30,550 nt of DNA from Gammaproteobacteria bacterium (GCA_965222155.1 CBDCTH010000008.1:1-30550), one strand, 5' to 3'. Shown: positions 9,491 to 30,550, numbered from the stretch's first letter. The notes: generated by a model from the sequence alone, not told the origin. Numbers and translations are program-made.

Positions 9491-9501
9491 GCTAACACAT
9501 C

Positions 9502-9918: not shown

Positions 9919-9956
9919 TCAAGTTCTCTAATAACGAGAAGCATAGCAGCTTTTCC

Positions 9957-10284
9957 CGTAACTTCTCAATAACCAGTATTTTCCAACAGCAGTTCCCGCT
10001 AACTCAGGGACCGAGGGCATCCTGCCCTCGTGGAGGGCGAGACGCCCTCCCTCCCAGGGAAACATGCCCCTTTATGGTCAGAGTATGCCAGAATCCGGTA
10101 ATAATCACTGTATTGACCTCGATTTAGCGGGAATGGCTGTGCATAAGGCATCTTGCGCACCCCGCGAGCTGAAGGCGCCGGGTTATTCAGAGGTGACGGC
10201 GATACCATTTACCATTCATTTCCCGGAACGAGGGCATCTTGCCCTCGTTCCCAGGAAAATGCACGAGCTTATTGAGAAGTTACG
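9957..10284. mobile_element. Probable second MITE bounded by 16-bp perfect inverted repeats and containing MITE A copy 3
   Basis: CGTAACTTCTCAATAA (9957-9972) / TTATTGAGAAGTTACG (10269-10284); a degenerate third copy at about 10303. Confidence 0.6.
9987..10139 (+). mobile_element. MITE family A, copy 3 (both TIRs, 153 bp)
   Basis: CAGCAGTTCCCGCTAAC ... TTTAGCGGGAATGGCTG; TIRs match the IS at 12121-13221. Confidence 0.85.
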
Positions 10285-10502
10285 AAACAAACAAATATTT
10301 CACGTAAACTTCTCAGTATTCGAGGTGTTCTGAAAAGGCTGTAGAAAATTGAAAAACCTAATTATTAATTCATGCAGTTACAAGTAATTCCCGGTTGACG
10401 GCAGACGTTGAAAATCAGCGGGAGCATCTGCCCTGGACAGCCGATAGAGTGACAATCATGAATACTTTATGGTTTAATCATCCAGAAATACGAGTAACTT
10501 CG

Positions 10503-12120: not shown

Positions 12121-13221
12121 CAGCAATTCCCGCTAACGCCTGAGACGTGCTGAAATCCTTATCAATACAGGGGTTTTTGCAGGGGTTAAAAAAAGTGTTC
12201 GTAAACGTTTCATGTTGATTCAGTCTACTAGCAGGCATTAGTCAAGTCAACGGTGACCCATCCTGTCCCGTCCTTATCTGCGCAAGACCCTGAGCGCCCC
12301 CGGTTTGTTACGTGAGGTGCGTCGTTGTTTTCAAGCTAGCAACGATGACACGGTCGGTCGGGGTTTGACCCTGGCGGATTACCTGCTGTCGGGGTTGGCC
12401 GTGTTCGGCTTGACGTATCCATCGTTGTTGCAATTTGACCGGGGTCCGGGGGACGAGTTGGTGCGGTCGAATCTGCGGTCGTTATACGGGATAGGGCGGG
12501 GCCCAGAGCCTGCCCCTGTATGGCGTTGAGCAGGGGGACACGGCCTTGCGGGCACGCGTGGACGCGCTGGCCCCCGCGGGGTGACGGCGTGCCTGCCGGC
12601 GGGTGTTTCATGTGCTACAACGGGGCAAGCTGCTGGAAGACGTTCTCTGGTGGGGCGGTCATGACCTGCTGTCGGTGGACGGGACCGGGTAGTTTCAGTC
12701 GGACACGGTGCATTGCGAGCAGTGTTGTGAGACACATCACCGGGACGGGCGGGTGAGTTGGTATCATCAGTTAATACCCTGAAGCACCCAGGCGACCACG
12801 TTGAGCATACCCTCCAACACGGCTATCAGCACCTGTCCACGGTGCTGGCGTGTCTGATTGACCCGGTGCAGCAGCACTGCTGCGGGCTGTTTCAACAGGG
12901 GGTGGCGAAGCGGGGCTGCAAGCGTGACGTCCGGGAGACACTGCGTAGCGTCTTCTGCACCTGGCTGGTGCCGGACTGGGAGACGCTGTATCGGGCCCTG
13001 GCCTACGGTGTATCGCCTACGGTGGTGGCGCCGTATGATACCGCTTGAGGACGGGCCGGGGTCGAGTAGTTCGAGGTGGGGAACGTCAGGGGAAGCCAAG
13101 CCACATCAACATAACCGGGGATAGCCGGCGGGTCGCGTATCCCCTGAGGGTCGGGTCACGGTGAAAAAAACGAACCTGACCCGACAATATAACCAGCTGA
13201 TAAAGTTAGCGGGAGCACCTG
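12121..13221 (+). mobile_element. Decayed, internally deleted IS (DDE transposase pseudogene, ISNCY-like) with TIRs and 9-bp TSD
   Basis: TIRs CAGCAATTCCCGCTAAC / GTTAGCGGGAGCACCTG; exact TSD GGCTAGCAA (12112-12120, 13222-13230); frameshifted fragments LSGLAVFGLTYPSLLQFD...NLRSLYGI and NTLKHPGDHVEH..HGYQHLSTV..LIDPVQQHCCGLFQ. The family name is from recall. Confidence 0.85.
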
Positions 13222-13280
13222 GGCTAGCAAGCAGGTCCTTGCTCGTCATACACTAGTACCCTAATTGATTTGGACTCAAG

Positions 13281-13550
13281 TTACTCCACTTGCCAGTCAA
13301 CAATTTGTTCATACAACTTTGCATTCATTTCTTCTCGCGTAGTCAACGTTCGCGTCTCACCAACCGGAAACTCAGTGGAAAAGTGTACAGCTTCTATCTC
13401 AAAGCCCTCAGCGTCCACACCTTGCAAGGTAAAATAAACATCTTCATCATCCGAGTTGTTCTTAACAGTGATTTTGATTGCAAAGATCACATCCCCGTAT
13501 TCATCGGTAGTGATAACTTTAGTAGTGATGCCATTAACTTTGTATTTCAT
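13281..13550 (-). CDS. Small hypothetical beta-rich protein (89 aa)
   Basis: AGGAG RBS, AT-rich; alternating pattern (IKITVKNNS, FTLQGVDAEGFEI) suggests an Ig-like sandwich. Confidence 0.7.
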   Translation of the reverse strand: MKYKVNGITTKVITTDEYGDVIFAIKITVKNNSDDEDVYFTLQGVDAEGFEIEAVHFSTEFPVGETRTLTTREEMNAKLYEQIVDWQVE

Positions 13551-14057
13551 TGGATACTCCTATTAAGTTGTTATGAAACATCAACCATTGTTCTAGCGGC
13601 CGCTATCATACCACGTGGAGCATTCAGATTTACCAGAGAGCCCAGCATTAGAGCTCATCAAGACATGAAGTATAAGGGGACGCCCATTAGCCAGTCTCTG
13701 TCAAGCGGGCACAACCCGGTTCTCCTGAGCCATCAGGCTTCTGATTAAATTAAACACCGGATACACGCCTGTTGTTTCATTAGTGTGTTATCGTATTGTA
13801 ACAATACGCAACAAACACCCATCAGTCTCCTCATTGTGGATGGTTTGTACACCCAACAGCCTAACCTGCTTCTGCAGGTTAGGGAGACTGGCTATATGAG
13901 TATCAGATTTGAAATCCGTCCCCGGCGTCCCTGGAATGGATTTGGATACTCGAAGAGTGCCCGAAGGGGGCGCTGCAAGGATGGAGCGTATCAAAAAGAC
14001 AAGCAAGGGCGCATTGCCTGGTAATGGAAATCCGGGCTGGCCTGCCCGGCATGCTGC

Positions 14058-16160: not shown

Positions 16161-19100
16161 TCATCTGCGCTCATCTGCAAAATCTGCGGAGCTACGTAAC
16201 CAATCTCTGAACTGGAGCGTGAGTGACAGCAGCGTCGGCATGAAGGTCAGCGTGATCAGCGTTGAGAACAGCAGGCCGAACATCACGATTGCCCCCAGAC
16301 CACGGTATAACTCCGTGCCCGCCCCCGGATTGAACACCAGGGGCGACAGGCCGAATATGGTAGTGATAGTGGAAATCATAATCGGCCTGATGCGGGCGCG
16401 GGTGCTCTCCAACACTGCGTCAATCGATTGCATTTCCCTGGTCTTGATGTTGCGGATAGTACGATCGATGATGAGGATGGGATTATTCACCACCGTACCA
16501 ATCAGGATCAGGAAGCCCAGCATGGTGATGACGTCAAAGGGCTGGTGTATATTTGCCAGTCCCAGCAGTGACATGTTCCCGCCTATCGCGTTCAGCAGCC
16601 ATAGCCCGAACAGCCCCCCGCCTATACCGACGGGGACGGTAGTCATCACCAGCAGCGGATATCCCCAATGCGAGAAGATGGCAACCAGCAACAAATAAGC
16701 AATGAACACCGCAATGATAAAGTTTCCCATCAAGGCATTCCGGGTCGCCTCAAGCTGATCGCTGGCTCCGGTGATGCCCATGCTGATGTCATCCCCTATT
16801 TCCCCCGCTTCCCTTAATTCCTCGATAATGTTCTGACGAACCATATCAACACCTTGCTCCAGCGGAATAGTGCGCGGCGGAATAATACCCAGAGTAATGG
16901 TCCTTTCACCGTCCACCCGGCGAATGGTCTCGGTGTTTACGGTGTGCCGGACCTCGGCCACCGCGTTCAGCGGCACCATGCCGCCCTGAGGTGAATACAA
17001 CATGATGTCGTCCACGTCGCTCGGTTGCCGGATGGTGCCGTGAGTGGAATACAGGAACATGTCGATCTTCTCATCACCCAGGAAGAACTCATCTACAAAC
17101 GCGCCGTCCGAGAAGGCCCAGATTGTGTAACCCAGGTCACCAGCATCAATACCCAGTTCGCTGGCCCGTTCCCAGTCAGGGCGAATTTCCACCAGGGGTT
17201 GCCCCATGGACAGGCTTGAGGGCTGCGGGCGGATTTGCGGATTCTCAAACACGGATTGGGCTTTGACAAAGGCCTTCTGACCGGCGTCAAACAGGGCTAC
17301 CAGGTCGGTACCGCTCAACTCCAGGTTGATACTCCTGGAACCGCCCATGTTGCTGGAAAAAATAGACCCCCGGGAAGCAAACGCATGAATCCCCGGTATC
17401 TCCCGAATCTTCTCCACCACAATCTCAAGCAGGTCGTTGACTTGCCCCGGTGAGGTAGCCTCCGGAATAACCATGTTGCGTGCGGCACCGATATATCCGA
17501 CCACGTAATTCAGGCCCGGCAGGTCGGATTCGCCCCTGGCGTATCTGTCCGGGTCTTCACCGATATGCGGCACGAGGAACCCATCCAGGTCCTTGTAGAT
17601 TGCATGCATCTCATCAATGTTATAACCGGGCGGAGCAAACATCTGGATGAATATCTTCTGTTCTTCCCCTTCCGGCAGGTATTCCGCCTTGGGGATGGAG
17701 GCAAAGATAAGTAGCGTAATAGCGCCCACCACAGCCACCAGGCCCAACCGGCGCGACACTCCCCCCATCAACCAATGCACGAAGCGGATAAGCAACTCAC
17801 CGAACCGCTGTCCGGCAATATACAGGCCAAAACGACCGGACGGATTATACCGTTCCAGTGTGAGAAACCGGCTGCACAGGGTCGGTACCACCAGGGTGGA
17901 GACCAGCAGGGACATGATGATGGAGGCGGAGATGGCGACGGCAATATCGGAATATAACTGGCCGGCCTCCTCCTTGATGAAGATGATTGGTATAAATACA
18001 AACACCGTCGTCAGGGTAGACGCCAGCAGGGCCGGCCACACCTCCGCGACACCGTCCAGCGCGGCGCGTCGGCGTTGCTTGCCTGTCGACATGTGTCGGT
18101 AGATGTTCTCCAGGACGACAATACTGTTATCCAGGGTCATACCGATGGCAAACGCGACGCCGGCAAGCGAGATCACATTGATGGTTCGTCCGCTGATAAG
18201 CAACCCCAGGAACGCGGCCAGCGTGCAGATGGGGATGCCCATGGCGCCGATGAAGGTGGCCGATGGGGTTCTCAGGAAAAGAAACAAGACCATGATGACC
18301 AATAAAGCGCCGATAAGCAGGTTTTTACGCACGTTCAGTACGGAATCAGAGACATATCTCACGTCATCGGAGTTGAGTATCATGTGCAACCCCTGCTGTT
18401 TCAACAGGCCGTTGTTCAGTTTCTCCACCTTTTTCATGACGTTGTCCTTCACTTCGACCACGTTGGAACCGATTTGCCGGCGTACTCCGAGGCTGATGTT
18501 CGGAATACCTCGCCCATAGGAGTAGGACTCGATTTCAAAGGTGGACAGTTCAGCGTAACCCAGGTCGCGCAAGCGGACAAACGCGCCGCCACGCTGGGTG
18601 ATAACCATATTTTCTATCTCTGCCGTGGTTTCAAAACGCCCTACCGTCCTGATCAGGTAACGGCGTTTACCGCTGTCCAGGTCACCGCCGGATACGTCCC
18701 GGTTACGCGCGCGGATAGCACTGCGTAACTCAGACAGCGTAATCTGACGTTCGGCCAGCTTGACCGGGTCCACGTAGATCTTGATCTGTCGCTCCGCTCC
18801 TCCCCACATGATCACCTCCGAGACGCCCGGGACCCGTTCAATCTGTACACGTACATGGTCTTCGAGAAAATCACGCTTATCCACCATGTTGACGTTCTGT
18901 GGATTGCCCGGCAGGGGCCGGGTGAGAAAAAACAGAAACGGGTTATTGGAGACGGTACTGGTGACAAGCCGCGGTTCATCGACGTTTTCCGGGTAGCCCG
19001 GAACCTGGGTCAACGCGTTGTTCACCCGGATCAGGACTTCGTTGATATCGGCTCCATAGGTAAATTCCAGTTCAATATCCCCGCGTCCGGTGACGGCCCT

Positions 19101-19340
19101 GGAAATCATGCGCTCCAGGCCGGGGATGCGACGCAGGTATTCCTCCTGCTCGATGATAATCTCCTTTTCCACGTCCTGGGGTGTCGCTCCCGGCCATTTC
19201 GTAATAACGGTGACTACTCTGACATCAAGATCTGGGATCATCTGGATGGGCACGCGATAAATGGCCAGGATACCGAACAGGCAGATGATCAATACCGCTA
19301 CCGCGATAATCAGGGGTTTCTCGAGAGCAAACCTAAACAT
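16161..19340 (-). CDS. RND efflux permease (AcrB/AcrD/AcrF family)
   Basis: 1059 aa; WPGATPQDVEKEI, INVISLAGVAFAIGMTLDNSIVVLENI, GFLILIGTVVNNPIL, RIRPIMISTITT. Confidence 0.95.
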   Translation of the reverse strand: MFRFALEKPLIIAVAVLIICLFGILAIYRVPIQMIPDLDVRVVTVITKWPGATPQDVEKEIIIEQEEYLRRIPGLERMISRAVTGRGDIELEFTYGADINEVLIRVNNALTQVPGYPENVDEPRLVTSTVSNNPFLFFLTRPLPGNPQNVNMVDKRDFLEDHVRVQIERVPGVSEVIMWGGAERQIKIYVDPVKLAERQITLSELRSAIRARNRDVSGGDLDSGKRRYLIRTVGRFETTAEIENMVITQRGGAFVRLRDLGYAELSTFEIESYSYGRGIPNISLGVRRQIGSNVVEVKDNVMKKVEKLNNGLLKQQGLHMILNSDDVRYVSDSVLNVRKNLLIGALLVIMVLFLFLRTPSATFIGAMGIPICTLAAFLGLLISGRTINVISLAGVAFAIGMTLDNSIVVLENIYRHMSTGKQRRRAALDGVAEVWPALLASTLTTVFVFIPIIFIKEEAGQLYSDIAVAISASIIMSLLVSTLVVPTLCSRFLTLERYNPSGRFGLYIAGQRFGELLIRFVHWLMGGVSRRLGLVAVVGAITLLIFASIPKAEYLPEGEEQKIFIQMFAPPGYNIDEMHAIYKDLDGFLVPHIGEDPDRYARGESDLPGLNYVVGYIGAARNMVIPEATSPGQVNDLLEIVVEKIREIPGIHAFASRGSIFSSNMGGSRSINLELSGTDLVALFDAGQKAFVKAQSVFENPQIRPQPSSLSMGQPLVEIRPDWERASELGIDAGDLGYTIWAFSDGAFVDEFFLGDEKIDMFLYSTHGTIRQPSDVDDIMLYSPQGGMVPLNAVAEVRHTVNTETIRRVDGERTITLGIIPPRTIPLEQGVDMVRQNIIEELREAGEIGDDISMGITGASDQLEATRNALMGNFIIAVFIAYLLLVAIFSHWGYPLLVMTTVPVGIGGGLFGLWLLNAIGGNMSLLGLANIHQPFDVITMLGFLILIGTVVNNPILIIDRTIRNIKTREMQSIDAVLESTRARIRPIMISTITTIFGLSPLVFNPGAGTELYRGLGAIVMFGLLFSTLITLTFMPTLLSLTLQFRDWLRSSADFADERR

Positions 19341-19350
19341 GATATTAAAT

Positions 19351-19518
19351 TTTTATCCGCAGATTACACAGATTACCGCAGATGAATATAAAGTTTCAGC
19401 GTGGACCGTGGTTTCAATCTGAAATTTCCTGTAGACCATGTTTAACAAACTACATTTTTATCTGCGTTCATCCATGCCCCTGTATGTATTAAGCAGGGGT
19501 GCGTAATCTGCGGATAAA
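19351..19518. repeat. Repeat family C inverted pair with nested mini-hairpin
   Basis: TTTATCCGCAGATTA...TAATCTGCGGATAAA; right arm interrupted by CCCCTGTATGTATTAAGCAGGGG. Confidence 0.8.
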
Positions 19519-19528
19519 TTACTCGTAG

Positions 19529-20674
19529 TCACAAGTTCATCCGGAGTTCTTCCTTGATTTCCACCCGTTGACCCGGACGCAGTATTTCATTGCCGCGTAC
19601 CACCACCCGGTCACCTGCCTGTACCTCACCCGCAGTGATTTCAATATTCTCCCGGTAGCTGCGGCCCGTACGGACCTGTACCTGTCTGGCTATTAATCCC
19701 CCCCCTTCCGGTTGTAACACCCAGATGGATTCGCTGCCGTCCGGTTTCCTGACAACGGCATCCTGCGGCACGAGTAGCGACAGTTCGGAAGCGGCGTCAT
19801 TAAGTTGAAATATCACGCGTGCCGACATGCCCGGAGCGAGCAGGCGCTCACTGTTGTCCAGGTCTATTTTCACCGGAAAGGTCCTGGTCGAAACATTGCT
19901 CATGGGGACTTTCATGGTCACCTCGGCAAGGAAGTCCCTGCCCGGATAGGCATCAAAAGTAAGCCTGACCGGGGTGCCCAACTGCAGGTCATTAAAATAA
20001 AACTGGGGAACCGGCACATTCACCCGCAACGACTTGATCTCCACCAGTTCAAACAACGGGGTATCAATACTGACCCATTCTCCTTTTTCGATCATTTTTT
20101 GCGTAATGACGCCGTCGAAAGGTGCTTTTATCACATGACGACTGACAATCTCTTCCCGGCGATCCAGCTCTTTTTTCAGGCGCTCCAATACCGCCGTATC
20201 CATTTCGACCATTGCCAGGGCCGCATCATACCGGGTCGCCGGAATATGCTTCTTCGCAACCAGTTCCGCAACCTCATCCTTTTGTCGCACGGCCTCTTTC
20301 AGTCTTGCCTGGGCCTCTTTTACCTGTGCCCTTGCGGCAGCACTATCAATTCCAGCGAGCACCTTATCCAGTTCCAGCAAGTTGTCACCCTGTTTGACTT
20401 CATCACCTTCATCCACATGAAGTGTTGCAACCAGACCGGCCACCTCAGGTGAAATCCTGGATAAACGTCTGGTGGTCACACTCCCGGTCAATGGCAGCTC
20501 TTCGAAGACCGGGGCTATAACGGTCTTCACAATCTTCACCGGTATAGCCCTTTCTGCCTGTGCATGGGCCAAGCCCGCCGCAAGCAACAACGGAAACAGA
20601 CGAAACCAGGGGCTGCCATACCTTGTAGACAGGGTAGATGTTGCTCCCCCGCGTATGTGTCTTATTTTAGCCAA
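19529..20674 (-). CDS. RND periplasmic adaptor (membrane fusion protein)
   Basis: ISPEVAGLV..LHVDEGDEVKQG, IKAPFDGVI, TRTFPVK, LAPGMSA; signal peptide AHA/QA; start overlaps the rdgB stop (exact start uncertain). Confidence 0.93.
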   Translation of the reverse strand: MAKIRHIRGGATSTLSTRYGSPWFRLFPLLLAAGLAHAQAERAIPVKIVKTVIAPVFEELPLTGSVTTRRLSRISPEVAGLVATLHVDEGDEVKQGDNLLELDKVLAGIDSAAARAQVKEAQARLKEAVRQKDEVAELVAKKHIPATRYDAALAMVEMDTAVLERLKKELDRREEIVSRHVIKAPFDGVITQKMIEKGEWVSIDTPLFELVEIKSLRVNVPVPQFYFNDLQLGTPVRLTFDAYPGRDFLAEVTMKVPMSNVSTRTFPVKIDLDNSERLLAPGMSARVIFQLNDAASELSLLVPQDAVVRKPDGSESIWVLQPEGGGLIARQVQVRTGRSYRENIEITAGEVQAGDRVVVRGNEILRPGQRVEIKEELRMNL

Positions 20675-21278
20675 GCAGCTTCGCCTCTTTCATCATCTCT
20701 ACCAGTTTCCGCAGGGCCTGGCCCCGGTGACTGACACTGTTTTTTACCTGCGTCGGCAATTCCGCCGAGGTACAGGCATGGGTGGGCACATAAAATACCG
20801 GATCATACCCAAAACCATTTCCCCCGGCAGGTTCAGCAACAATATGCCCCTCCCAATTCCCGTGCGCGATGATCGGTTCCGGGTCATCACCCTCACGCAC
20901 AAACGCCATAATACACTGGAACCTTGCAACCGGATTCCGTATGCCCGCAGCAGCAATGTTATTCAGCAGTAATTGCAAGTTATCACTGTCCGAGGCATCT
21001 TCACCTGCATAGCGTGATGAGTAAACCCCCGGCTCACCGTTCAATATATCCACCTCCAGACCGGAATCATCAGCTATCACCGAGCGCCCGGCAGCCGTCG
21101 CCGCGTGCCGGGCCTTAATGAGCGCGTTTTCAACGAAACTCGAACCGGTTTCCTCCACAGCGGATACCGAGAACCGGGATTGTGGTAGTACACTGACCTG
21201 GTAAGCGGAAAATAACTGCGACAACTCACGCAGTTTACCCGGATTGCCGCTGGCCACCACAATTTCTCTGTTACTCAT
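20667..21278 (-). CDS. rdgB: dITP/XTP pyrophosphatase
   Basis: [49 protein letters not shown]. Confidence 0.96.
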
Positions 21279-21997
21279 TGGCCGGCGCCCAGGGTCATCG
21301 ATTGAATGGCAAACAACTGCTCAATACCCGTCTTTGCCAGGTTAAGTAACTGCTCCAACTCTGCAAAAGTGAACGGATGGCCCTCCGCAGTGCCCTGGAT
21401 TTCAATCAATTCACCCCGGTCATTCATCACCACGTTCATGTCTGTCTCGGCGCCGGAGTCCTCGGCATAATCCAGGTCCAGTACCGGGACGCCGGTGCAG
21501 ATACCGACCGAAACGGATGCGACCGCGCCAATGATCGGATTTGTCTGGATGGCCCCCTCTTCCAGTACCCTGTGAATGGCGTCCACCAGCGCCACGTAAG
21601 CACCGGTAATCGAGGCAGTGCGAGTGCCGCCATCGGCCTGAATAACGTCACAATCGACGATAATGGTATTCTCACCCAGGGCATTTAAATCCACTACGGC
21701 CCGCAGGGAGCGCCCGATCAACCTCTGGATCTCATGAGTACGCCCGCTTTGTTTGTTCTGGCCGGCCTCACGACGCATACGTTTATCCGTGGATCGGGGC
21801 AACATACCATACTCAGCGGTCACCCAGCCTTTACCCCCACCCTTCAAAAAACGCGGTACCGAATCATCAAAAGTGGCATTGCAAATAACCCGGGTCTGGC
21901 CGAATTCAACCAGCACCGATCCCTCAGCATGATGCGTGTATGCCCTGGTCAGTCTTACTTCCCTCATTTCATCGCGGGCGCGTCCACTCGGGCGCAT
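21275..21997 (-). CDS. rph: Ribonuclease PH
   Basis: [52 protein letters not shown]; 4-nt overlap with rdgB. Confidence 0.97.
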
Positions 21998-22400
21998 GGC
22001 TATTCTCCTCATAGATAGGCGGATGGCCTGAAAATACAGGCTGTTGTCATTATAACCGGTCAGCCACTAGAACAGAAAAACAGAGACCAAGCTCTCTTTC
22101 AGCCCCATCGGCAGAAGCTACAAAATCTTTTGATGGAATAGGCTTGGACACTACGATTGACTATTATAAGCAACTCGCTCAGACTTCTTGATGTGCCTTA
22201 AATCTTTTTATAATAATCGGGTGGAATAGCACATTTAGCTTGGACAAGGTATAGAAGCACCCCATGATGAGAAGTTTAACTATCTAGCTGCTGGACTGGC
22301 TTGATTACTTTACACGGGGGGGCTGGTGAATAAAGAGAACTTCTTTCGGCAAGAAAGATTAGCGCAATATCATGAAGTTGCGGGTGGTGGAGATAAGTAA

Positions 22401-25085
22401 ATGAACGAGCAAAAATCACCTATATACCAGGGGGCCCGATTTTACAAATGTGCCTTACAAGTAAATCCTTATAGCTATAATCAATACGGGGGGGAACAAG
22501 CTCATGATGAGACAAGCTACAACCAGAAAGTCTTGCAGCAGTGCCATGATAACGAGATAGAAGTCGTAGGGCTTGCCGATCATGGCAGAGTTGAGGATTC
22601 AGAAGGGTTACGGAATTTTCTGACAACAAATGGAATCGTCGTATTTCCAGGCTTCGAGATTGCCAGCTCTGAAAAAATTCACATGGTATGTCTCTATCCT
22701 GAGAATAACTCCTTGGCAACACTAAATCAGCATCTTGGACAGTTGATGGGAGGAAATAGCGCCCAACTTGGTCAAGAGCCAACCCATCCATCCTCATTAA
22801 GTTGCGAGCAAATCGCAGGCAAAGTGATAAATGATCAAGAAGGTTTTTGGTACGCTGCACATATGACCGGAAAAAATGGCCTGCTAAAGCTGGATGGCAG
22901 TGGAGGAAACTATGTTCAACTATGGAAAAAAGAGGCGTTAGTCATGGCCGGGCAGATTCCCGGCAGGATAGAAGATTTGCAGATAGAGCAAACGGAATTA
23001 GGAAAATACCGGCAAATTATCGAAAATAAAAATCCACATTATCAACGAGAAAAACCAATTGCGATTATTAATGCAAAAGATATCAAGGAACCAGATGATC
23101 TAAAACACAAATCTGCCTCCTGTCTAATCAAAATGACAGATGCCAATTTTGAAGCATTTATACAAGCTTTTTTAGACCCTGAATCCAGAATTCGTCTCAA
23201 TCATGATATGCCGGAACAGCCTTATTCCATAATTAAATCCATTCAATGGCGCGGCGCCGGTTTTTTCAGGGAAAATAATCTGACTTTCTCCCAGAATTTG
23301 AATGTGATGATCGGCGGTCGAGGCTCCGGAAAATCCACCTTGATTGAGAGCATCAGATTCGTTTTAGATGCGCCAATTCGAGGAGATGATGGGAAAGATA
23401 GTTTACGTAAAACCACATTGCAAGATTCTCAAGTTATTTTGCAAGTACGCTCAAAAACCCAAAATGGAAACACCTATAGCATCAGTAGGCGATATGGCGA
23501 GCAACCGGTGGTGAAAAATGATCAGGACGAGATATCGTATCTACGACCTGATGAAATCTTACCAAATATTGAAATACTGGGACAGAATGAAATACTTGAA
23601 ATAGAGAAAGATGAAAAGGCCAAGCTTGCTCTAACAAGCCGCTTTCTATCCGATGGCAAGCAATTTGAACAACATATGGTTGAAACTAAAAACAAACTGA
23701 AAAAAAATCGGGAACGGCTTCTGGACGCTTCTGCCGAATATGAAGCCCTCGATGTAGAAGTCGCAAAAGAATCAAAACTTAAAGAACAGGTCAGTCAATT
23801 CAGGAAACTCGGGATAGAAGCAAAACTAAAAAATGCACGATTAATCGAACGTGAAAGGGGTATTCAAAAAAATATTGAGGAACAACTGGAGATCGTTGAC
23901 AACTGGCTAAAAAGCTATCATGAGGTTTTCGATCTTTCATTCCTCCAACACGAGAACACAAAAACTCTACCCAATGGGGATATCATTGAAGCAGCGGGAA
24001 AAATTCTTGAGAGTCTGAAAAATAATATTGATGAATTGGTTCGACAGACAAATGAACCTGTAGAAAAAGCCAAGTCAGAATACCAGAGTGTGCGATTGGA
24101 GTGGGACAAAGGACGAAGTAGAGTTCGTGATGAATTAAACAATGCTATTGCTCAGCTACCGGAACAAGCTGGAAAAAGCGGTAGCCAATTAGGTTCAGAG
24201 TACACGACCATCATTGTACAACTGACAAAAATTGAAGGATTCAAAAAGGCCCATGAGAATCAGGGGAAAATAGTTCGCACACTCAGAACAGAGCGTGACA
24301 ATTTACTGGAAAACTATCGAAGTCTGGCATTTTCCCGATACTCTGCCATGGAAAAATCTACTAAAAAAGCTAACAAGCAGCTTGAGGGAAAAGTAAGAAT
24401 TGCTATAAAGCGGAAAGGTAATCTTGAACATCTGAAAGATTTTTTACTCAGTCTAGATGGAATTGGTAAAGCTAAAATTGAGTGGCTGGATCAAACGCAA
24501 GACAATCTGGACCCAACTCAATGGGCCAAGTGGGTTGAAGAAAGTAATCCAAATGCTTTTCTGGAAGCATTCTCACCAGTTGGATTAACTAAAGGTGTTG
24601 CGGAAAGATTATGTAAACTTGATATTAAACAACGTTTACAATTAGAAGAGATTGAACTGATGGATACCGTGGAAATTGAACTAAACGCCGCACATGATGA
24701 TGCAGAGGAGCATTTTGTGCCATTAAATTTGCTTTCCATTGGACAAAAGTGTACCGCAATTTTGAACTTATTATTGTTGAGTCGGGATGATCCATTGATC
24801 ATTGACCAGCCTGAAGATAATTTGGATAACGCCTTTATCGCAAACCGTATAGTGAAAGATTTGAGGCAGTTCAAGACGAACAGGCAATTCCTGTTTGCCA
24901 CCCACAATCCCAATATTCCGGTATTTGGCGACGCTGAGTTGATTGCAGTACTTGAAAGTAGCAAAGATTTCGGTCGTATTGGCGAAGGTTCCATCGATAA
25001 AAAACCAGTACGAGAAAAGGCCGCTGAGATACTTGAGGGCGGTAAAGCTGCATTTGAAATGCGCAAAAGAAAATACGGATTTTAG
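22401..25085 (+). CDS. PHP domain + ABC/SMC-like ATPase fusion (Ppl / TrlF-like), putative anti-phage protein
   Basis: 894 aa. PHP-like N-terminus (LADH, FPGFEI....IH, YAAH), Walker A GGRGSGKST, Q-loop GQNE, long coiled coil, signature LSIGQK, Walker B/D-loop IIDQPEDNLD, H-loop ATHN, C-terminal ILEGGKAAF..R..KY. Confidence 0.88.
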   Translation: MNEQKSPIYQGARFYKCALQVNPYSYNQYGGEQAHDETSYNQKVLQQCHDNEIEVVGLADHGRVEDSEGLRNFLTTNGIVVFPGFEIASSEKIHMVCLYPENNSLATLNQHLGQLMGGNSAQLGQEPTHPSSLSCEQIAGKVINDQEGFWYAAHMTGKNGLLKLDGSGGNYVQLWKKEALVMAGQIPGRIEDLQIEQTELGKYRQIIENKNPHYQREKPIAIINAKDIKEPDDLKHKSASCLIKMTDANFEAFIQAFLDPESRIRLNHDMPEQPYSIIKSIQWRGAGFFRENNLTFSQNLNVMIGGRGSGKSTLIESIRFVLDAPIRGDDGKDSLRKTTLQDSQVILQVRSKTQNGNTYSISRRYGEQPVVKNDQDEISYLRPDEILPNIEILGQNEILEIEKDEKAKLALTSRFLSDGKQFEQHMVETKNKLKKNRERLLDASAEYEALDVEVAKESKLKEQVSQFRKLGIEAKLKNARLIERERGIQKNIEEQLEIVDNWLKSYHEVFDLSFLQHENTKTLPNGDIIEAAGKILESLKNNIDELVRQTNEPVEKAKSEYQSVRLEWDKGRSRVRDELNNAIAQLPEQAGKSGSQLGSEYTTIIVQLTKIEGFKKAHENQGKIVRTLRTERDNLLENYRSLAFSRYSAMEKSTKKANKQLEGKVRIAIKRKGNLEHLKDFLLSLDGIGKAKIEWLDQTQDNLDPTQWAKWVEESNPNAFLEAFSPVGLTKGVAERLCKLDIKQRLQLEEIELMDTVEIELNAAHDDAEEHFVPLNLLSIGQKCTAILNLLLLSRDDPLIIDQPEDNLDNAFIANRIVKDLRQFKTNRQFLFATHNPNIPVFGDAELIAVLESSKDFGRIGEGSIDKKPVREKAAEILEGGKAAFEMRKRKYGF

Positions 25086-25101
25086 GTTAAGAGATTGACC
25101 A

Positions 25102-26331
25102 ATGCTACCAAGTGAATTACTCGCCCTAATCAGCCAGGATGAAGGCGCAAAGCTGGATTTCAAACGAGATGGTATGCGTCCTGAAAAGATGGCAAAGGAA
25201 ATTGTCGCCTTTGCCAATATGAATGGCGGCATCATATTGGTTGGCGTAGACGAGAATGATAAAAATATCAGCGGGGTTCAGAGAAAAAATTTTCAGGAAT
25301 GGTTAATGGACACGGTGATTGGCAGGCATGTCCATCCATTTATATTACCGGATTATGAAGAAATAACTACTGATGAAGGGAGGGTGGCTGTTGTTGAAAT
25401 CCCCCAGGGCAATAGTAAACCCTATATTCTTCGACACAATAACCGTGAAGATGTTTATGTGCGATATGGCGACACCTGTCAGTTGGCAACACGCGAACAG
25501 AGTGCCCGATTGTTCGAAAGCGGTGGTTTGATTTCAATTGAAAAGATGCCGGTTCATGGTAGCAGGCTACAAGACCTGGATAAAAGGCGTCTGCAAAACT
25601 ATTTTGTTGAAATCAGTCAAATAATAGACCTTGGTGAATGGCAAAGTTTCAGTAATGGAGATATTACTGAATGGTTGATCAACCGTGATCTCATGTGTGA
25701 TGTGGATGACGACTGTGTTTGTACAATTGGGGGACTGGCATTATTTGGTATAAAACCCAATTTAAGACTGTCTCAATCAGCAATTCGACTCACGGTGTTT
25801 CCTGGTCTTGACAAGGATTACAACACTGATCTGGACATTGTAATCAGTTCACCTTTTGTGGCTCTGGGCCGGCCTGACGATACCTATTATGAGCCACCTG
25901 TTACTGAGCGTGTTTTATCTGCTTTACAACCTCATATCAGTAAAGAGAAGTTGGACAGGACGACGAGAAGAATATATTGGGACTATCCGGAAGACGTCAT
26001 ACGTGAGGTGATAGTCAATGCTTTTGCCCATCGGGATTGGACCAGAAACACGGATATCGAAATCAGTGCTTACACTGATCGTATGGAAATAATAAGCCCT
26101 GGCGCATTGGTCAATGGTATGACAGTAGATAAATTAAAAGCGGGACAACGCACTCCTAGAAATAATAATATCTTTAGTGTCCTTCGTGATTGTGGCCTGA
26201 TGGAACACCAAGGCATGGGTATTCGTCGCAAAGTCATTCCATTGATGAAAAAATATAACGACACAGAGCCTGTTTTTGAAGCAACTGAAGACTATTTCAA
26301 AGTGACGTTATTGAAAAAATTACCAAACTGA
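25102..26331 (+). CDS. Schlafen/AlbA_2 domain + HATPase_c_4 (RecG C-terminal-like) protein
   Basis: EGAKLDFK, EIVAFANMNGGIILVGVDE, YVRYG; C-terminal IREVIVNAFAHRDW, DRMEIISPG, RN..I, MEHQGMGI; no trailing HTH; 16 nt after the ATPase stop. Confidence 0.88.
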   Translation: MLPSELLALISQDEGAKLDFKRDGMRPEKMAKEIVAFANMNGGIILVGVDENDKNISGVQRKNFQEWLMDTVIGRHVHPFILPDYEEITTDEGRVAVVEIPQGNSKPYILRHNNREDVYVRYGDTCQLATREQSARLFESGGLISIEKMPVHGSRLQDLDKRRLQNYFVEISQIIDLGEWQSFSNGDITEWLINRDLMCDVDDDCVCTIGGLALFGIKPNLRLSQSAIRLTVFPGLDKDYNTDLDIVISSPFVALGRPDDTYYEPPVTERVLSALQPHISKEKLDRTTRRIYWDYPEDVIREVIVNAFAHRDWTRNTDIEISAYTDRMEIISPGALVNGMTVDKLKAGQRTPRNNNIFSVLRDCGLMEHQGMGIRRKVIPLMKKYNDTEPVFEATEDYFKVTLLKKLPN

Positions 26332-26469
26332 CCGTCATTAGTCCAGACTTGGATATACGACTCCGAATTACACCAAATTTAAGTATATAATTAACCGAAT
26401 AATATACGGTTAGATAAACTTTCATCGAGGTTGCTTTAATTCAGGGATAACAACTGATGGAGAATTAGA

Positions 26470-27327
26470 ATGGTTGCCAGCATGACTGCTTTTGCGCGGC
26501 GCGAAGAATCAGGGGAATGGGGTCATGCCGCCTGGGAAATTCGTACGGTTAACCATCGTTATCTGGATATTTCGATCCGGCTGCCTGAGGAACTGCGCGC
26601 CCTGGAAACCAGTGTGAGGGAGTGTGTCTCTAAAAAGCTCAAACGCGGCAAGGTGGAATGCAACCTTCGCTACGATGCTGATTCGGCTGCCGGTGATTTT
26701 AATATCAACTCGGAGCTTGCGGAAAGGGTCATTCATGCGGCCCGCGAACTTCATCTACAGAGCCCCCCGACTATAAATCCCTTTGACGTGTTACGCTGGC
26801 CCGGCGTCATTGATAAAAATGCGCCGGACCTGGAGCGGATCGGCAACGCCCTGATGAACCTGCTGGACAAGGCCCTCGATAACATTGTTGCTGACCGGCG
26901 CAGGGAAGGTAAAAAAATTGAGCAGATGATTGCCGGACGATGCGATCTTTCGCTGCACCAGGTCCGGCAAATCCGAAACAGGATTCCGGAAATTATTGCC
27001 GCCACCAGGGAACGGCACCTGGCCAGGGTACAGGAACTCGATATCGAACCGGACAGCGGCCGGCTCGAGCAGGAAATTGCCCTCTTGTCACAGAAACTGG
27101 ACGTGGCTGAAGAACTGGACCGGCTGGAAACCCACACTAACGAAGTCAGGAGCATCCTGAACGAACCGGAACCCGTCGGCAGGCGACTCGATTTTCTTAT
27201 GCAGGAGATGAATCGTGAGGCCAACACGCTGGGGTCGAAATCAGCCCATATCGATACAAGCAACGCATCGATTGAACTCAAAGTACTGATCGAACAGATG
27301 CGCGAGCATATCCAGAACATAGAATGA
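26470..27327 (+). CDS. yicC: YicC/YloC family endoribonuclease
   Basis: SMTAFAR, EIRTVNHRYLD, RGKVEC, DVAEELDRL, GRRLDFLMQEMNREANTLGSKS, EQMREHIQNIE. Confidence 0.96.
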   Translation: MVASMTAFARREESGEWGHAAWEIRTVNHRYLDISIRLPEELRALETSVRECVSKKLKRGKVECNLRYDADSAAGDFNINSELAERVIHAARELHLQSPPTINPFDVLRWPGVIDKNAPDLERIGNALMNLLDKALDNIVADRRREGKKIEQMIAGRCDLSLHQVRQIRNRIPEIIAATRERHLARVQELDIEPDSGRLEQEIALLSQKLDVAEELDRLETHTNEVRSILNEPEPVGRRLDFLMQEMNREANTLGSKSAHIDTSNASIELKVLIEQMREHIQNIE

Positions 27328-29750
27328 TTGAAAAGCGCCATTTGCCATCATTCCGGCAACACCTGCCGTCATTCCGGCAACACCTGTCGTCATTCCGGCA
27401 ACACCTGTCGTCATTCCGGCGAAAGCCGGAATCCAGTAAATTAACGTGCCGCAGGCGGCCCAGTGTTTCACTGGATTTACATCCTTTGTTCCGTCAACGG
27501 CACATCCATGTGCCACTACTCGGCTTTCGCCGGAATGACGAAGGAAGGACATTTTCTGTCCCCAAATTATTAATTCATTTTCTGTGGCTGCTACTCATGT
27601 ATGGAGCGACCTGTCAGGCAGATACGGACAAGCAAGCGTTAACCCTGGAAAGCATTTTTGCCAGCAGTGAATTTGAAAATAATCTGCCGCAAAACATCCA
27701 GTGGCATAACGACGAACGGAGTTTCACCTTCACAAGAAAGAACCCGGAGACCGGCCTGCTTGATATCCATGAGTACGACGTTGCCGCCGGCGCCACGCGT
27801 TTAATCATCTCCGGGGACACACTCCGATATGAGAATGAACCCGTCGGGATGAGTAACTATCAGTGGGCAGCCGACGGTCAATTTATCTTGCTGGCAGGTC
27901 CGGTTAATCTGACCTGGGACGGCAGGTACGAAGCGCCCTGTTACATCTATGATCCCGGCAATAAAGAACTCCGGGCGTTTGCCGATAATAACCCACACTT
28001 GCTTAACGTCCGCCTCTCCCCGGACGGCAGTCGCGTGGGTTACGTACTGGAAAATAATATTTACATCACCGAGTTGAGCAGCCGCTCCACCCGCGCCGTC
28101 ACGACCGACGGTGATTACAACATATTCAACGGCTTTTTTGACTACGGCAGCAAGATGTTCTCCAGCGGGCCGGCCTGGTTCTGGTCGCCTGACGGCAGCA
28201 GGATCGCGTTCTGGCGCCTGGATGTCACGGACGTGAAGGTCTATTACATGGTGGATGAACTGGGTAAGTACAATACCGTCCGACCTATGAAATACCCGAA
28301 TACCGGCGAGCGTCTTGCCGTCACCCGGATAGGCGTGTTTGACCTGGAAAGCGGCCGGACAAGCTGGATGGATACCGGTGACAACCCAGATGACTACATC
28401 CCCAGGATCACCTGGACGAATTCCTCGGATACCCTCGCCATACAACGGCTTACCAGGGACCATAACAGACTGACTCTTCTGCTTGCCGACACCGTCACCG
28501 GCAAATCGAAAGCGATTGTCAATGATACAGACCCTGCATGGGTGGATATCACGAATGATTTGCTGTTTTTCAGAGACCGGGAAGCCTTCGTTTGGACCTC
28601 AGAGAAAAGCGGTTATCGCCATGCCTACCTCTACGATTACGAGGGAAACGAAATACAGTTGACTGACGGTGACTGGGAAATCTCCGCGCTCATCGGTCTC
28701 GATGAAAGCGCGGGCTGGCTGTATTTCTACGCTAAAAAGGACTCATTTATTGACCAGCATGTCTACAGGATCAAGCTCGACGGCTCGAATGTGGAAAGGC
28801 TGACAAGCAAACCGGGCTGGCACGAATGGCAGTTTTCACCGGACCGCCAACAGGTAATTGAGACCTGGTCCAATGCCAACACACCACACAGCATGACCTT
28901 GCGCAAGGCAAATGGAGATAAAGTCCGTGTACTGGAAGCCAGCAAACTCAAGGCAATGGATCAATATGCCATGCCGCACACGGAGTTTCTCAAGGTGGAA
29001 ACCAGTGACGGAATACTGATCGATGCCTATATGATCAAGCCGCTGGATTTCGATCCCGGTAAAAAATACCCGGTTATCGGTTACGGTTACGGTAACGCCG
29101 GTTCGCAGATGGTCACCAACAGGTGGGGTACCCAGTGGCAGCGGGACCCGAAACAGGATCTCTGGCACCGCTACATAGCTGAGCAGGGTTATATCATCTT
29201 CGCCGTGGACAACCGTACCAGCGCGGGAAGAGGCAAGGCGGCTAAGAACCTGACCTACGGGCACTATGGGAAATATGCTGTTCTCGACTACCTGGAAGGC
29301 GTCAACTACCTGAAATCACTGCCTTACATCGATGCAAGCCGGCTCGGCTTCTGGGGCTGGAGCGGCGGCGGTTACCTGGCTGCCGCGCTGATGACCAAGG
29401 GCGCGCCCCACTTCAAGACCGCCGTCAGTGTTGCGCCGGTCATCGATCTGAACCGCTACCAGGCCTTCGGTGTGGAACGCTGGATGGATACCGTTGAAAA
29501 CAATCCTCAGGGTTACTATGAAGTCAACCTGATGAACTTCGCCGACAAGCTGCAGGGCAACCTGCTGCTGATCCACGGCACAGGCGATGAAAATGTCAAG
29601 TATGCATTCACCTTACAGTTAGCCGACGCCCTGATTACCAACAACAAACAATTCGACATGATGATCTATCCGAACCAACATCATAACCTGGACGACGTAC
29701 AACTGCATGTATTTACCAGGATCACCAATTATTTTCTTGAGAAGCTGTAA
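27324..29750 (+). CDS. Dipeptidyl-peptidase IV-like S9B serine peptidase, secreted
   Basis: Beta-propeller (WSPDGSRIAF, YPNTG), GWSGGG nucleophile, LLIHGTGDENV, YPNQHH; signal peptide LLIHFLWLLLMYGATCQA/D preceded by a repeat-derived extension; ATGA overlap with yicC. Confidence 0.92.
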   Translation: MIEKRHLPSFRQHLPSFRQHLSSFRQHLSSFRRKPESSKLTCRRRPSVSLDLHPLFRQRHIHVPLLGFRRNDEGRTFSVPKLLIHFLWLLLMYGATCQADTDKQALTLESIFASSEFENNLPQNIQWHNDERSFTFTRKNPETGLLDIHEYDVAAGATRLIISGDTLRYENEPVGMSNYQWAADGQFILLAGPVNLTWDGRYEAPCYIYDPGNKELRAFADNNPHLLNVRLSPDGSRVGYVLENNIYITELSSRSTRAVTTDGDYNIFNGFFDYGSKMFSSGPAWFWSPDGSRIAFWRLDVTDVKVYYMVDELGKYNTVRPMKYPNTGERLAVTRIGVFDLESGRTSWMDTGDNPDDYIPRITWTNSSDTLAIQRLTRDHNRLTLLLADTVTGKSKAIVNDTDPAWVDITNDLLFFRDREAFVWTSEKSGYRHAYLYDYEGNEIQLTDGDWEISALIGLDESAGWLYFYAKKDSFIDQHVYRIKLDGSNVERLTSKPGWHEWQFSPDRQQVIETWSNANTPHSMTLRKANGDKVRVLEASKLKAMDQYAMPHTEFLKVETSDGILIDAYMIKPLDFDPGKKYPVIGYGYGNAGSQMVTNRWGTQWQRDPKQDLWHRYIAEQGYIIFAVDNRTSAGRGKAAKNLTYGHYGKYAVLDYLEGVNYLKSLPYIDASRLGFWGWSGGGYLAAALMTKGAPHFKTAVSVAPVIDLNRYQAFGVERWMDTVENNPQGYYEVNLMNFADKLQGNLLLIHGTGDENVKYAFTLQLADALITNNKQFDMMIYPNQHHNLDDVQLHVFTRITNYFLEKL
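27346..27540. repeat. CGTC-type REP cluster: three 21-bp tandem units + REP + interrupted inverted REP
   Basis: C(A/G)TCATTCCGGCAACACCTG(C/T) x3 (27346-27408), CGTCATTCCGGCGAAAGCCGGAATCCAG (27409-27436); inverted partner split into CTGGATT (27471-27477) and CGGCTTTCGCCGGAATGACG (27521-27540). Confidence 0.9.
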
Positions 29751-29782
29751 ACAACGATTATCCTGCTAAAAACCACAGCTTG

Positions 29783-29813
29783 GATATTTGGTGTCACAAA
29801 TGAGTAATCGCAT
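29783..29813 (-). pseudogene. Possible 5' relic of a PIN-domain gene coupled to the ImmA/IrrE gene
   Basis: ATG overlapping the end of the peptidase gene reads MRLLICDT, then N-I after a +1 slip, resembling the hhhDxNh first PIN motif; nothing follows. Confidence 0.45.
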
Positions 29814-30550
29814 CAAACAACTTCAATTTCCGTATCTGATGGAAGCGCATCAAAGGCATTTTCAGTAATTCAGCGGCTTTGGACTCGCTGATAATCCCTT
29901 CACCTAATGCATGACAGACCAATTGCTGAAATAACAGTGTGTGTTCCTTGGGGTACGCTTCTCCCGGTTCCTGTTTACGCCAACCTTCTGATGAATAAAC
30001 CTTGAGCAGACGTTTGCTGGTAGATTTATCAATAATACTCAACTCGGCGGCACGATGAAGACATGCCATCATACTGAGACCGAACTCGTGCTTCAACAGA
30101 TACAACTCGCGAACCTCAAGATTGTGGCGTTTGTCCCCAAGTTGCCGGCGAATACTGGCGGCAGGTAACAAAAAAGCAGCTGCAAAGCGGTCAGACGCTT
30201 TTTCTTCGTCCAGTTCAGAACTCATACGACCATGCAACAACAAATGTCCCAGTTCATGCGCCAGTGTAAAACGCTGCCGGTCACCGGGCCAATTGGCAGA
30301 AACCACTACGACCGGTTGGTCTGCAACCGTAGCTTGCAACCCGTCGAACTTGTCATGCACATTGACATGAGTAATGATCACCAGCACTCCATGGGACTCC
30401 AGCACATCAACCAGGTCCGGCAGCGGGTTCAAGCCTAACTGCCAGCTTGCCCGTACATGATCAGCAAACTGCCCTACTTCCTCCAGGGTAGTAATGCGCT
30501 CCGGCAGGCCGCTGATACCACTGAATGCCGGCACCGGGAAGGCAGGCCAT
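29794..30550 (-). CDS. ImmA/IrrE family (M78) metallopeptidase, 5'-truncated by the window edge
   Basis: A..VR..W.LG..P, GDRQRFTLAHELGH (HExxH), EEKASDRFAAAFLLP, LK.EFGLS, ISESKAAELL; frame open to 30550. Confidence 0.9.
   Translation of the reverse strand, partial: WPAFPVPAFSGISGLPERITTLEEVGQFADHVRASWQLGLNPLPDLVDVLESHGVLVIITHVNVHDKFDGLQATVADQPVVVVSANWPGDRQRFTLAHELGHLLLHGRMSSELDEEKASDRFAAAFLLPAASIRRQLGDKRHNLEVRELYLLKHEFGLSMMACLHRAAELSIIDKSTSKRLLKVYSSEGWRKQEPGEAYPKEHTLLFQQLVCHALGEGIISESKAAELLKMPLMRFHQIRKLKLFDAITHL

Follow-up and report, generated by a model that had tools for sequence, protein, structure and literature searches.

The window analysed here is a stretch of 30,550 nucleotides (nt) from a gammaproteobacterium (GCA_965222155.1, CBDCTH010000008.1:1-30550). 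Between the divergent core genes rph and yicC it carries two co-directional genes: trlF (gene 1), coding for a TrlF-family protein with a PHP-like domain and a Rad50/SMC-like ABC ATPase, and trlG (gene 2), coding for a stand-alone Schlafen + GHKL protein. A preliminary description of this DNA had presented the pairing as undescribed. It is in fact already in print, the trlF–trlG operon having been published for Photorhabdus (PMC7554251) and the TrlF family named by NCBI, and the pair found here is a further, horizontally acquired copy. The family, the gene pair and the Schlafen + GHKL class being known, what the window adds is a deep-branch copy without trlR, the regulator gene of the Photorhabdus operon. 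The islet is most likely an abortive-infection-type phage-defence module. In the reading preferred here, held with middling confidence, it is an acquired defence cassette devoid of trlR, in which TrlG would be the effector and would stand under negative control by TrlF; this defence reading of trlF–trlG is reasonable but unproven.

The islet between rph and yicC

The preliminary description had noted two AT-rich genes, 16 nt apart, wedged between rph and yicC with no integrase, and the open reading frame (ORF), G+C and flank data agree with it (Table 1). The G+C fraction is 0.39–0.45 across nine 500-nt segments covering 22001–26500, and 0.50–0.57 in the flanks. In two genomes of the same family in which the pair is absent (G161 and G326), rph and yicC are also divergent and lie only ~100–110 nt apart, so that the 4,457-nt interval seen here is an insertion of foreign composition. 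Two syntenic relatives (L001 and L002) have this insert too, likewise between rph and yicC. The islet is a horizontal acquisition.

A prophage or an integrative element could be ruled out, since no integrase was found in the islet region and no att-like repeats were found either: a repeat search over 21900–26600 gave no direct repeats bounding the islet, only short two-copy matches. The same interval has no Rfam match, and the 388 nt upstream of trlF (22013–22400) contain no ORF of more than 47 residues. Promoter and terminator scans returned site counts no higher than in shuffled sequence, and no promoter is claimed.

Table 1. The trlF–trlG islet, its flanks and the main protein features, in positions of the window (residue numbers refer to the protein concerned).
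Feature	Residues	Positions	Strand	Basis or remark
rph (RNase PH), core flank		21275–22012	-	Pfam RNase_PH + RNase_PH_C
Low-GC islet (rph–yicC interval)		22013–26469		4,457 nt, insert ~4.35 kb; GC and synteny
trlF (gene 1)	894-residue ORF	22401–25085	+	TrlF-family PHP-like + Rad50/SMC-like ABC ATPase
PHP-like N-terminal domain, TrlF	9–270	22425–23210	+	QxN replaces canonical HxH
ATPase head, N-terminal half, TrlF	275–420	23223–23660	+	Profile matches SMC3/Rad50/SMC heads in PDB (273–365)
Walker A GGRGSGKST	305–313	23313–23339	+	G305, G306, G308, G310, K311 invariant
Q-loop, TrlF	Q395		+	N-terminal head half; invariant
Helical insert, TrlF	421–740	23661–24620	+	Presumed coiled-coil arms, apex near 520–600
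ATPase head, C-terminal half, TrlF	741–894	24621–25082	+	Contains signature, Walker B/D-loop, H835
Signature LSIGQ	778–782	24732–24746	+	L778, S779, G781, Q782 invariant
Walker B/D-loop, TrlF	798–806		+	D802, Q803, P804, E805, D806 invariant; also H835
Spacer, trlF stop to trlG start		25086–25101	+	16 nt, contains purine-rich AAGAG
trlG (gene 2)	409-residue ORF	25102–26331	+	Stand-alone Schlafen + GHKL ('Schlatpase') protein
Schlafen/AlbA_2 nuclease domain, TrlG	14–129	25141–25488	+	Pfam
Schlafen catalytic motif E14-x4-D19-x-K21	E14-GAKL-D19-F-K21	25141–25164	+	Intact
Middle region, TrlG	141–310	25522–26031	+	Mosaic compared with syntenic relatives
GHKL-type HATPase_c_4 domain, TrlG	317–403	26050–26310	+	N-box E302/N306 just upstream
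yicC, core flank		26470–27327	+	Pfam YicC-like_N + YicC-like_C

TrlF, a PHP-like variant joined to a Rad50/SMC-like ATPase

Gene 1 passes the NCBIfam model NF045780 ('TrlF family AAA-like ATPase') with 500.2 bits for a cut-off of 350, and the match is full-length (residues 11–893 on profile positions 2–944). It had been called Ppl-like. The likeness stands in part, through a partial match to the PADLOC Ppl model PDLC02208 (E 2.3e-33, best stretch 79–309 of 894), but the protein is not Ppl: it scores 139.7 bits, in two partial stretches, against a cut-off of 1000 for the curated NF042955 model, which rules this identity out.

The ATPase is the firm part of the architecture first proposed for gene 1. 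Walker A, Q395, the signature, the Walker B/D-loop and H835 are all present and are invariant in 52 homologues; Pfam recognizes AAA_21 (763–839), SMC_N and AAA_23, and the nearest solved structures by sequence are Rad50 and SMC heads. The SMC_N match spans residues 290–839, yet covers profile positions 16–201 only. The long coiled coil of the preliminary description is a prediction: the ~320 residues between the two head halves, with 6.9% Pro + Gly and 33% charged residues, have a composition that fits a coiled coil.

The PHP domain is the weakest part of this architecture. The window protein has no Pfam PHP match even at E ≤ 1, and no PHP-domain match in the PDB by sequence or by profile, where SMC/Rad50 heads only were retrieved. 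Its PHP identity is based on the PADLOC Ppl match, on the full-length NF045780 match, on Pfam PHP matches in 26 of the 52 homologues at E ≤ 1 (best 9.8e-5) and on a profile alignment with a canonical PHP paralogue encoded in this genome, which is collinear but weak, of low probability (E 0.013). In this weak alignment, CALQVN of TrlF corresponds to DLHNH, ADH to TDH, GFE to GAE, AAH to PAH and AKD to SDAH. C17, L19, Q20, N22, H61, E86, H94, H154 and D227 are invariant in the 52 homologues; residues 17–22 (22449–22466) form an invariant C-A-L-Q-V-N in place of the PHP HxH, and the last His is absent. The N-terminus of TrlF is best described as a predicted, conserved PHP variant with a QxN in place of the HxH pair, which points to a changed metal site or to ligand binding without catalysis.

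An archaeal member of the family was met on a Halapricum desulfuricans plasmid (L073, NZ_CP064792.1 91615-99146), where the TrlF-family gene is followed by a gene for a DUF262 protein, not a Schlafen, and flanked by DUF1156 and DUF499 genes. A validated defence protein in which DUF262 is fused to Schlafen is described in PMC13056530.

TrlG, a Schlafen + GHKL protein with an exchanged middle region

Gene 2 had been described as AlbA_2/Schlafen plus HATPase_c_4 without helix-turn-helix (HTH). Pfam bears this out, with SLFN_AlbA_2 at 14–129 (E 7e-25) and HATPase_c_4 at 317–403 (E 8.9e-23), and since the protein ends at residue 409 there is no room for an HTH after HATPase_c_4. A protein search gave 2134 TrlG homologues. 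The Schlafen active-site motif, published as Ex4(E/D)xK (PMC13056530), is preserved: in 56 homologues E14, F20 and K21 never vary, position 19 is always E or D, and the family profile aligns this stretch to the catalytic C-lobe of the solved mammalian SLFN8, SLFN14, SLFN5, SLFN12 and SLFN11. In the GHKL part, R301, N306, H310, R311, D312, W313, G371 and G373 are invariant in the same 56 proteins and E302 nearly so; the HATPase_c_4 region matches PDB entry 3lmm. With PF13749 and the N-box Glu/Asn after its Slfn domain, TrlG belongs to the Schlatpase class. PADLOC matches on gene 2 are limited to pAgo-associated Schlafen models and PDC-S50.

Compared with L001 (8702–9904) and L002 (8695–9885), TrlG is a mosaic. 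Identity is 76–83% over residues 1–140, 35–38% over 141–310 and 62% over 311–409; TrlF is 80–85% identical over its whole length. All of TrlF, the Schlafen domain and the last ~40 residues of TrlG are 76–94% identical to those of these relatives. At the DNA level, the homology to L001 is broken over 25560–26085, one short patch excepted, and picks up again at 26201, near the 3' end. In other homologues, 70–94% identical to the window TrlG, similarity is even along the length, so that the divergent middle region is to be seen as an allele exchange by recombination within trlG, not as gradual hypervariation. This exchanged region is a candidate specificity region.

Two of the sampled genomes, G231 (L057:7827-9008) and G233 (L059:8973-10373), have a second, divergent Schlafen + HATPase_c_4 gene directly beside trlF–trlG.

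Recurrence and coupling of the two genes

Four hundred genomes were sampled evenly from the class, and 18 loci were fetched and re-scored. Two candidates were scored per genome, more distant full-length TrlF matches in G068 and G021 being left out; neither of these two genomes gave a Schlafen match with the window query. TrlF-type genes, 34–44% identical and full-length, have TrlG directly downstream in 9 of 10 cases, namely seven intact pairs, one cut by the contig end after 72 codons and one with both genes broken; the tenth (G238) is without TrlG. Seen from the other side, 13 full-length TrlG-type genes were found, seven after an intact TrlF, two after a TrlF remnant and four without TrlF, two of the latter inside type I restriction operons and two among core genes.

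Other sources give a more mixed picture of the recurrent adjacency that had been anticipated. Among the 80 best metagenome TrlG loci, which include some near-duplicates, 70 had at least 300 nt upstream: TrlF is directly upstream in 33 of them, absent in 35 and elsewhere in the locus in 2. At loci with at least 2,700 nt upstream, the proportion is 20/40. Eighteen plasmid records have a near-full TrlF, of which 13 were inspected, their gene tables being incomplete; TrlG is present in 4 of the 13 (three Vibrio parahaemolyticus plasmids and one Citrobacter plasmid). The solo TrlF genes lie on plasmids of Bacillus, Staphylococcus, Chitinibacter, Xanthomonas, Acetobacter, Providencia, Klebsiella, Latilactobacillus and Halapricum. 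Phage records gave distant matches only, below 30% identity over most of the query. Adjacency is thus recurrent but optional, and an obligate two-gene system is ruled out, as each gene often occurs alone.

When the genes do occur together, they look tightly coupled. Each of the 13 chromosomal or plasmid-borne pairs keeps the order trlF then trlG, with gaps of -19 to +33 nt and, in some pairs, overlapping stop and start codons. The pairwise identities of TrlF and TrlG correlate (Spearman 0.92 over 78 pairs, the relatives not being independent), and this co-divergence holds down to 22%/28% identity. Recurrent and translationally coupled, TrlF is an obvious candidate for the missing sensor or regulator of Schlafen + GHKL proteins.

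The alternative ranked second, which we consider rather unlikely, is that TrlF, as a Ppl-like nuclease-ATPase, and TrlG, as a Schlafen + GHKL tRNase complete in itself, are autonomous single-gene defences kept in one operon only for their joint transfer, with neither regulating the other. The solo TrlF genes at 9 of the 13 plasmid loci speak for it, as do the 35 metagenome loci out of 70 with TrlG and no TrlF (plus the two with TrlF elsewhere) and the solo TrlG genes that sit by themselves within BREX-like and hsd operons. Ppl itself functions as a single gene (PMC12904381), most Schlafen + GHKL proteins are reported without a fixed partner (bioRxiv 10.64898/2026.05.29.728809), and Table 1 of PMC7554251 contains no trlF mutant. 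No fused TrlF–TrlG protein was found, which is weak evidence; one longer protein had a DUF4209 and no TrlF part. The constant order and spacing in 13/13 pairs, with their occasional stop/start overlaps, argue on the contrary for a functional link, as do the co-divergence of the two proteins, the insertion of the pair as a unit into other operons and the retention of TrlG by 9 of the 10 TrlF-type genes in sampled chromosomes. Control of TrlG by TrlF is therefore kept as the preferred reading.

Two loci show decay. In G064 (L061:3390-6988), trlF is broken into two ORFs and trlG is reduced to its C-terminal third, with an in-frame TAG; the start of trlF is overlapped by a Cro/C1-type HTH gene (134 residues), perhaps a counterpart of trlR, and next comes an ISL3 transposase gene. 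The TrlG of G254 (L044:6486-7802), at 70% identity the closest among the sampled genomes from outside the lineage of the window, is preceded by the last 22 trlF codons only and adjoins ThiF-JAB, DUF6527, AAA and subtilase genes: here TrlF was lost and TrlG kept, within another defence-type cluster.

A defence-type genomic setting

The defence-type setting proposed in the preliminary description is confirmed in the family at large, since homologous pairs recur inside BREX and restriction-modification operons. On the Vibrio parahaemolyticus plasmids, trlF–trlG separates pglX from pglZ in a BREX-1 operon; in G108 and on the Citrobacter IncC plasmid, it is flanked by hsdS and hsdR. In G393 it comes after a type III restriction-modification gene pair and in G231 after hsdM and hsdS, and it overlaps an Eco57I/MmeI-type methylase gene in G249 and a ResIII helicase gene in G389. 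In G169, it is a lone insert between the core genes ftsK and lolA, as in the window. Solo TrlG genes are sometimes found within BREX-like or hsd operons by themselves. Such embedding is the classic position of accessory defence genes, and it is the main argument for an immunity role of the family.

This setting bears on a non-immune function, to which we give only a slight chance: a stress or growth-control module halting replication on heat or other stress, or, for TrlF, an SbcCD-like repair enzyme. Induction on temperature upshift followed by growth arrest, as reported for Photorhabdus, is consistent with the former and is the authors' own reading (PMC7554251); the PGAP annotation attaches a double-strand-break-repair Gene Ontology term to TrlF in the Vibrio and Citrobacter plasmid records, which would suit the latter. 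The patchy distribution, the foreign composition, the presence of the pair on plasmids and its embedding in BREX and restriction-modification operons are all difficult to reconcile with a stress module, as are the documented antiviral roles of the Schlafen domain (PMC13056530; bioRxiv 10.64898/2026.05.29.728809). A defence system misfiring under stress would moreover give the same phenotype. The phage-defence reading remains preferred on these grounds.

The Photorhabdus prototype and the direction of control

The prototype of the pair is TrlR-TrlF-TrlG, the temperature restriction locus (TRL) of Photorhabdus laumondii (Hapeshi et al. 2020, PMC7554251). According to this paper, the trlR-trlF-trlG operon lies between polA and dsbA; trlR codes for a 79-residue regulator, trlF is annotated 'histidinol phosphatase', and trlG encodes an AlbA_2 + HATPase_c_4 protein misannotated as recG. 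Transcription of the operon goes up on temperature upshift. Strains with the operon deleted, or with point mutations in trlG, can grow at 36 °C; the restriction comes back when the whole operon is supplied. By our own tally of Table 1 of PMC7554251 as printed, ~22 of the 36 °C-tolerant clones carry trlG lesions, at least 14 of them distinct, and no lesion falls in trlF, despite its being 2.2-fold longer than trlG. The main text discusses growth control, not phage defence. Among the papers covered by a full-text literature search, none links the trl locus, or Schlafen + PHP, to defence.

The window pair shares with this locus a PHP-annotated ATPase gene followed, in the same order, by a gene for a ~400-residue AlbA_2 + HATPase_c_4 protein without HTH, as well as an insertion between core genes (polA/dsbA there, rph/yicC here). 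The domains compared by published coordinates lie at 14–129 and 317–403 in the window TrlG, and at 14–128 and 298–365 in the Photorhabdus protein (PMC7554251). Unlike the Photorhabdus operon, the window has no trlR (79 residues), the upstream ORFs having at most 47; trlR is also missing beside the Vibrio, Citrobacter and Pseudomonas plasmid pairs. The two loci probably also differ in branch. At the same numbering, the window TrlG matches only 2 of the 13 published mutated positions, and a Pseudomonas-plasmid-type TrlG matches 4/4 C-terminal mutated positions at offset -1, a hint about the branch of the prototype only. This type, the best fit to the published numbering, is 22% (TrlF) and 28% (TrlG) identical to the window proteins, and by such identities the window pair, without trlR, is placed on a different, deep branch of the trlF–trlG family.

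The genetics constrain the direction of control. The preliminary description had supposed that the ATPase senses infection and activates the RNase, and this fits poorly with a screen that gave trlG lesions only (PMC7554251). A TrlF acting as a sensor that positively activates TrlG in the manner of PrrC/RloC, the RNase being off without TrlF, is in our view improbable. ABC/SMC ATPases serve as infection sensors in many systems, and the tight trlF–trlG coupling would suit such a scheme, as would the resemblance of TrlF to Ppl, a sensor of DNA ends and nucleotide depletion (PMC12904381). Yet the lesions in the ~22 tolerant clones all fell in the shorter gene, and TrlG-type genes persist without TrlF at many loci. 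The lack of trlF lesions favours a TrlF that restrains TrlG, or is dispensable, over one required for activation. Restraint fits the screen, since loss of TrlF would then be toxic and would never be recovered; it was chosen over the irrelevance of TrlF because the two genes are tightly coupled.

The preferred scheme of restraint and release would run as follows. TrlG would be the effector, a stand-alone Schlafen + GHKL tRNase, restrained by TrlF in the uninfected cell. TrlF would be a single-chain, Mre11-Rad50-like controller monitoring DNA ends and/or nucleotide pools; by analogy with Ppl, this is probably what it reads. Once TrlF is engaged or disabled by a phage (in Photorhabdus, by heat), TrlG would be released, its Schlafen active site (E14/D19/K21) would assemble, tRNA would be cut and growth would stop. 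Restraint and release would operate as they do in PARIS, by analogy. Three lines speak for the predicted effector role of TrlG: the conserved nuclease motif, the published trlG genetics and related Schlafen + GHKL biochemistry. As for tRNA cleavage by TrlG, its contact with TrlF, the direction of control and phage defence, we infer them all. A fuller version appears somewhat unlikely to hold as a whole: a QxN-type TrlF reading DNA ends or nucleotides would restrain the TrlG tRNase until infection, the middle region of TrlG would set specificity, the temperature restriction of Photorhabdus would be a heat-triggered autoimmunity, and the pair would be a widespread two-gene anti-phage system.

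Several points weigh against the restraint scheme. The TrlF–TrlG link is optional in both directions: TrlF is solo at 9 of the 13 plasmid loci inspected, and TrlG-type genes have no directly upstream TrlF at 37/70 metagenome loci and no TrlF at all in 4/13 cases from genomes. In a quick tree of 24 TrlF proteins, at least 6 partner gains or losses are needed for the paired/solo label, where shuffling gives a mean of 8.0 changes and 48/500 shuffles are as low as 6. The strongest objection to restraint comes from the numerous solo TrlG genes, which speak against a constitutively toxic TrlG in the absence of TrlF. With HxH and the last His missing, nuclease activity of the PHP-like domain is uncertain. 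The Photorhabdus prototype, judged from the aligned positions, is probably of the Pseudomonas-plasmid type, a separate branch. No protection was seen in E. coli with two Schlafen-HisKinase fusions (PMC13056530, the main text of which names no PHP, SMC or Rad50 partner), and the literature search found no phage-defence test of any TrlFG pair.

Schlafen + GHKL, the commonest bacterial Schlafen architecture, is without demonstrated trigger, and the two members tested were tested alone. If the pair defends, a Rad50-like machine acting at DNA ends would be tied to Schlafen tRNases, Ppl with its single gene would gain a two-gene relative, and the setting of the maximum growth temperature of Photorhabdus by one locus would be a case of misfiring immunity. 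If it does not, the locus is one more copy of a known, poorly understood operon.

Comparison with known systems

Ppl is reportedly a single-gene PHP + ATPase anti-phage protein, described in E. coli by Gao et al. in 2020. Like TrlF, it has a PHP-like domain, an ABC/SMC ATPase and a helical insert, and the similarity between the two is significant but partial. TrlF differs in scoring below the Ppl cut-off, in its invariant QxN replacing HxH and in the Schlafen gene beside it. Seven Ppl-like loci were found in the 400 genomes, with 486–614 bits, none over the cut-off, the locus of G127 being broken into two matches; none of the seven has a Schlafen neighbour. Biochemically, E. coli Ppl is a 3'-5' single-stranded DNA exonuclease, inhibited by bound nucleoside triphosphates and activated by 3'-OH ends (PMC12904381).

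TrlG resembles the pSlfn-HisKinase or Schlatpase proteins, with their AlbA_2 domain containing Ex4(E/D)xK, their PF13749 GHKL domain and their defence-island setting. This architecture represents 34% of pSlfn proteins (PMC13056530), and 58.6% of prokaryotic SLFN proteins carry GHKL in the 'Schlatpase' supradomain (bioRxiv 10.64898/2026.05.29.728809). For bacterial Schlafens, tRNA cleavage in defence is on record (PMC13056530), and a Schlafen + GHKL protein tetramerises on ATP and cleaves tRNA (bioRxiv 10.64898/2026.05.29.728809). The main text of neither report mentions a PHP, SMC or Rad50 partner. Unlike proteins described in them, TrlG has no pAgo, Ig-like or DUF262 sensor; a separate sensor of TrlG, if any, would be TrlF.

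The resemblance of TrlFG to PARIS (AriA-AriB), PrrC and RloC, in which ABC-type ATPases are coupled to tRNA nucleases, would be one of logic: an ABC/SMC-like ATPase coupled to a tRNA-directed, growth-arresting nuclease. The embedding of TrlFG, and of solo TrlG, in type I restriction operons is also reminiscent of PrrC. The TrlG effector is a Schlafen, without homology to Toprim or to the PrrC anticodon nuclease, and PADLOC matches gene 2 to none of AriB, PrrC and RloC. AriA of PARIS and TrlF are similar in the P-loop region only (PDB AriA, E 0.07), and TrlF has its own phosphoesterase domain. With Mre11-Rad50/SbcCD, TrlF shares, as an architectural analogy, a Rad50/SMC-type head with a presumed coiled-coil insert and a metallophosphoesterase; it differs in being one chain, in its PHP-like rather than Mre11-type domain, and in being patchy and mobile rather than housekeeping.

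Other variable regions of the assembly

Lower-GC stretches are also found at 9001–10500 and 13001–14000 (0.46–0.50), where the ORFs at 8939–9505 (-) and 13290–13748 (+) have no Pfam matches. The window is the whole 30.5-kb contig C8 of a 12-contig assembly. Positions 18516–29770 are 99.34% identical, with 53 mismatches and 4 gaps, to contig C10 of the same assembly (L014, G000:C10:104000-123999), after which the two diverge; their TrlF and TrlG proteins are 100% identical. C8 and C10 look like two strain variants within one assembly (contamination 7.3%).

C10 has a second PHP + ATPase gene (L014:11830-14508, +), 5 kb past trlG and on the far side of yicC and a DPP-IV peptidase gene; it encodes 892 residues with a canonical DLHNH. 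This protein scores 173 bits for Ppl and 297 bits for TrlF, both below the cut-offs, and has no Schlafen partner. The sequence that follows (L014:14919-19965) carries a 132-residue ORF, type I hsdM and hsdS, a C-terminal fragment of hsdR and a DDE transposase. Downstream of the peptidase gene there is a second variable spot for defence genes. In the window, at the departure from C10, a gene at 29794–30549 (-) that runs off the contig end encodes a Peptidase_M78 protein of ImmA/IrrE type, which is typical of mobile-element regulators.

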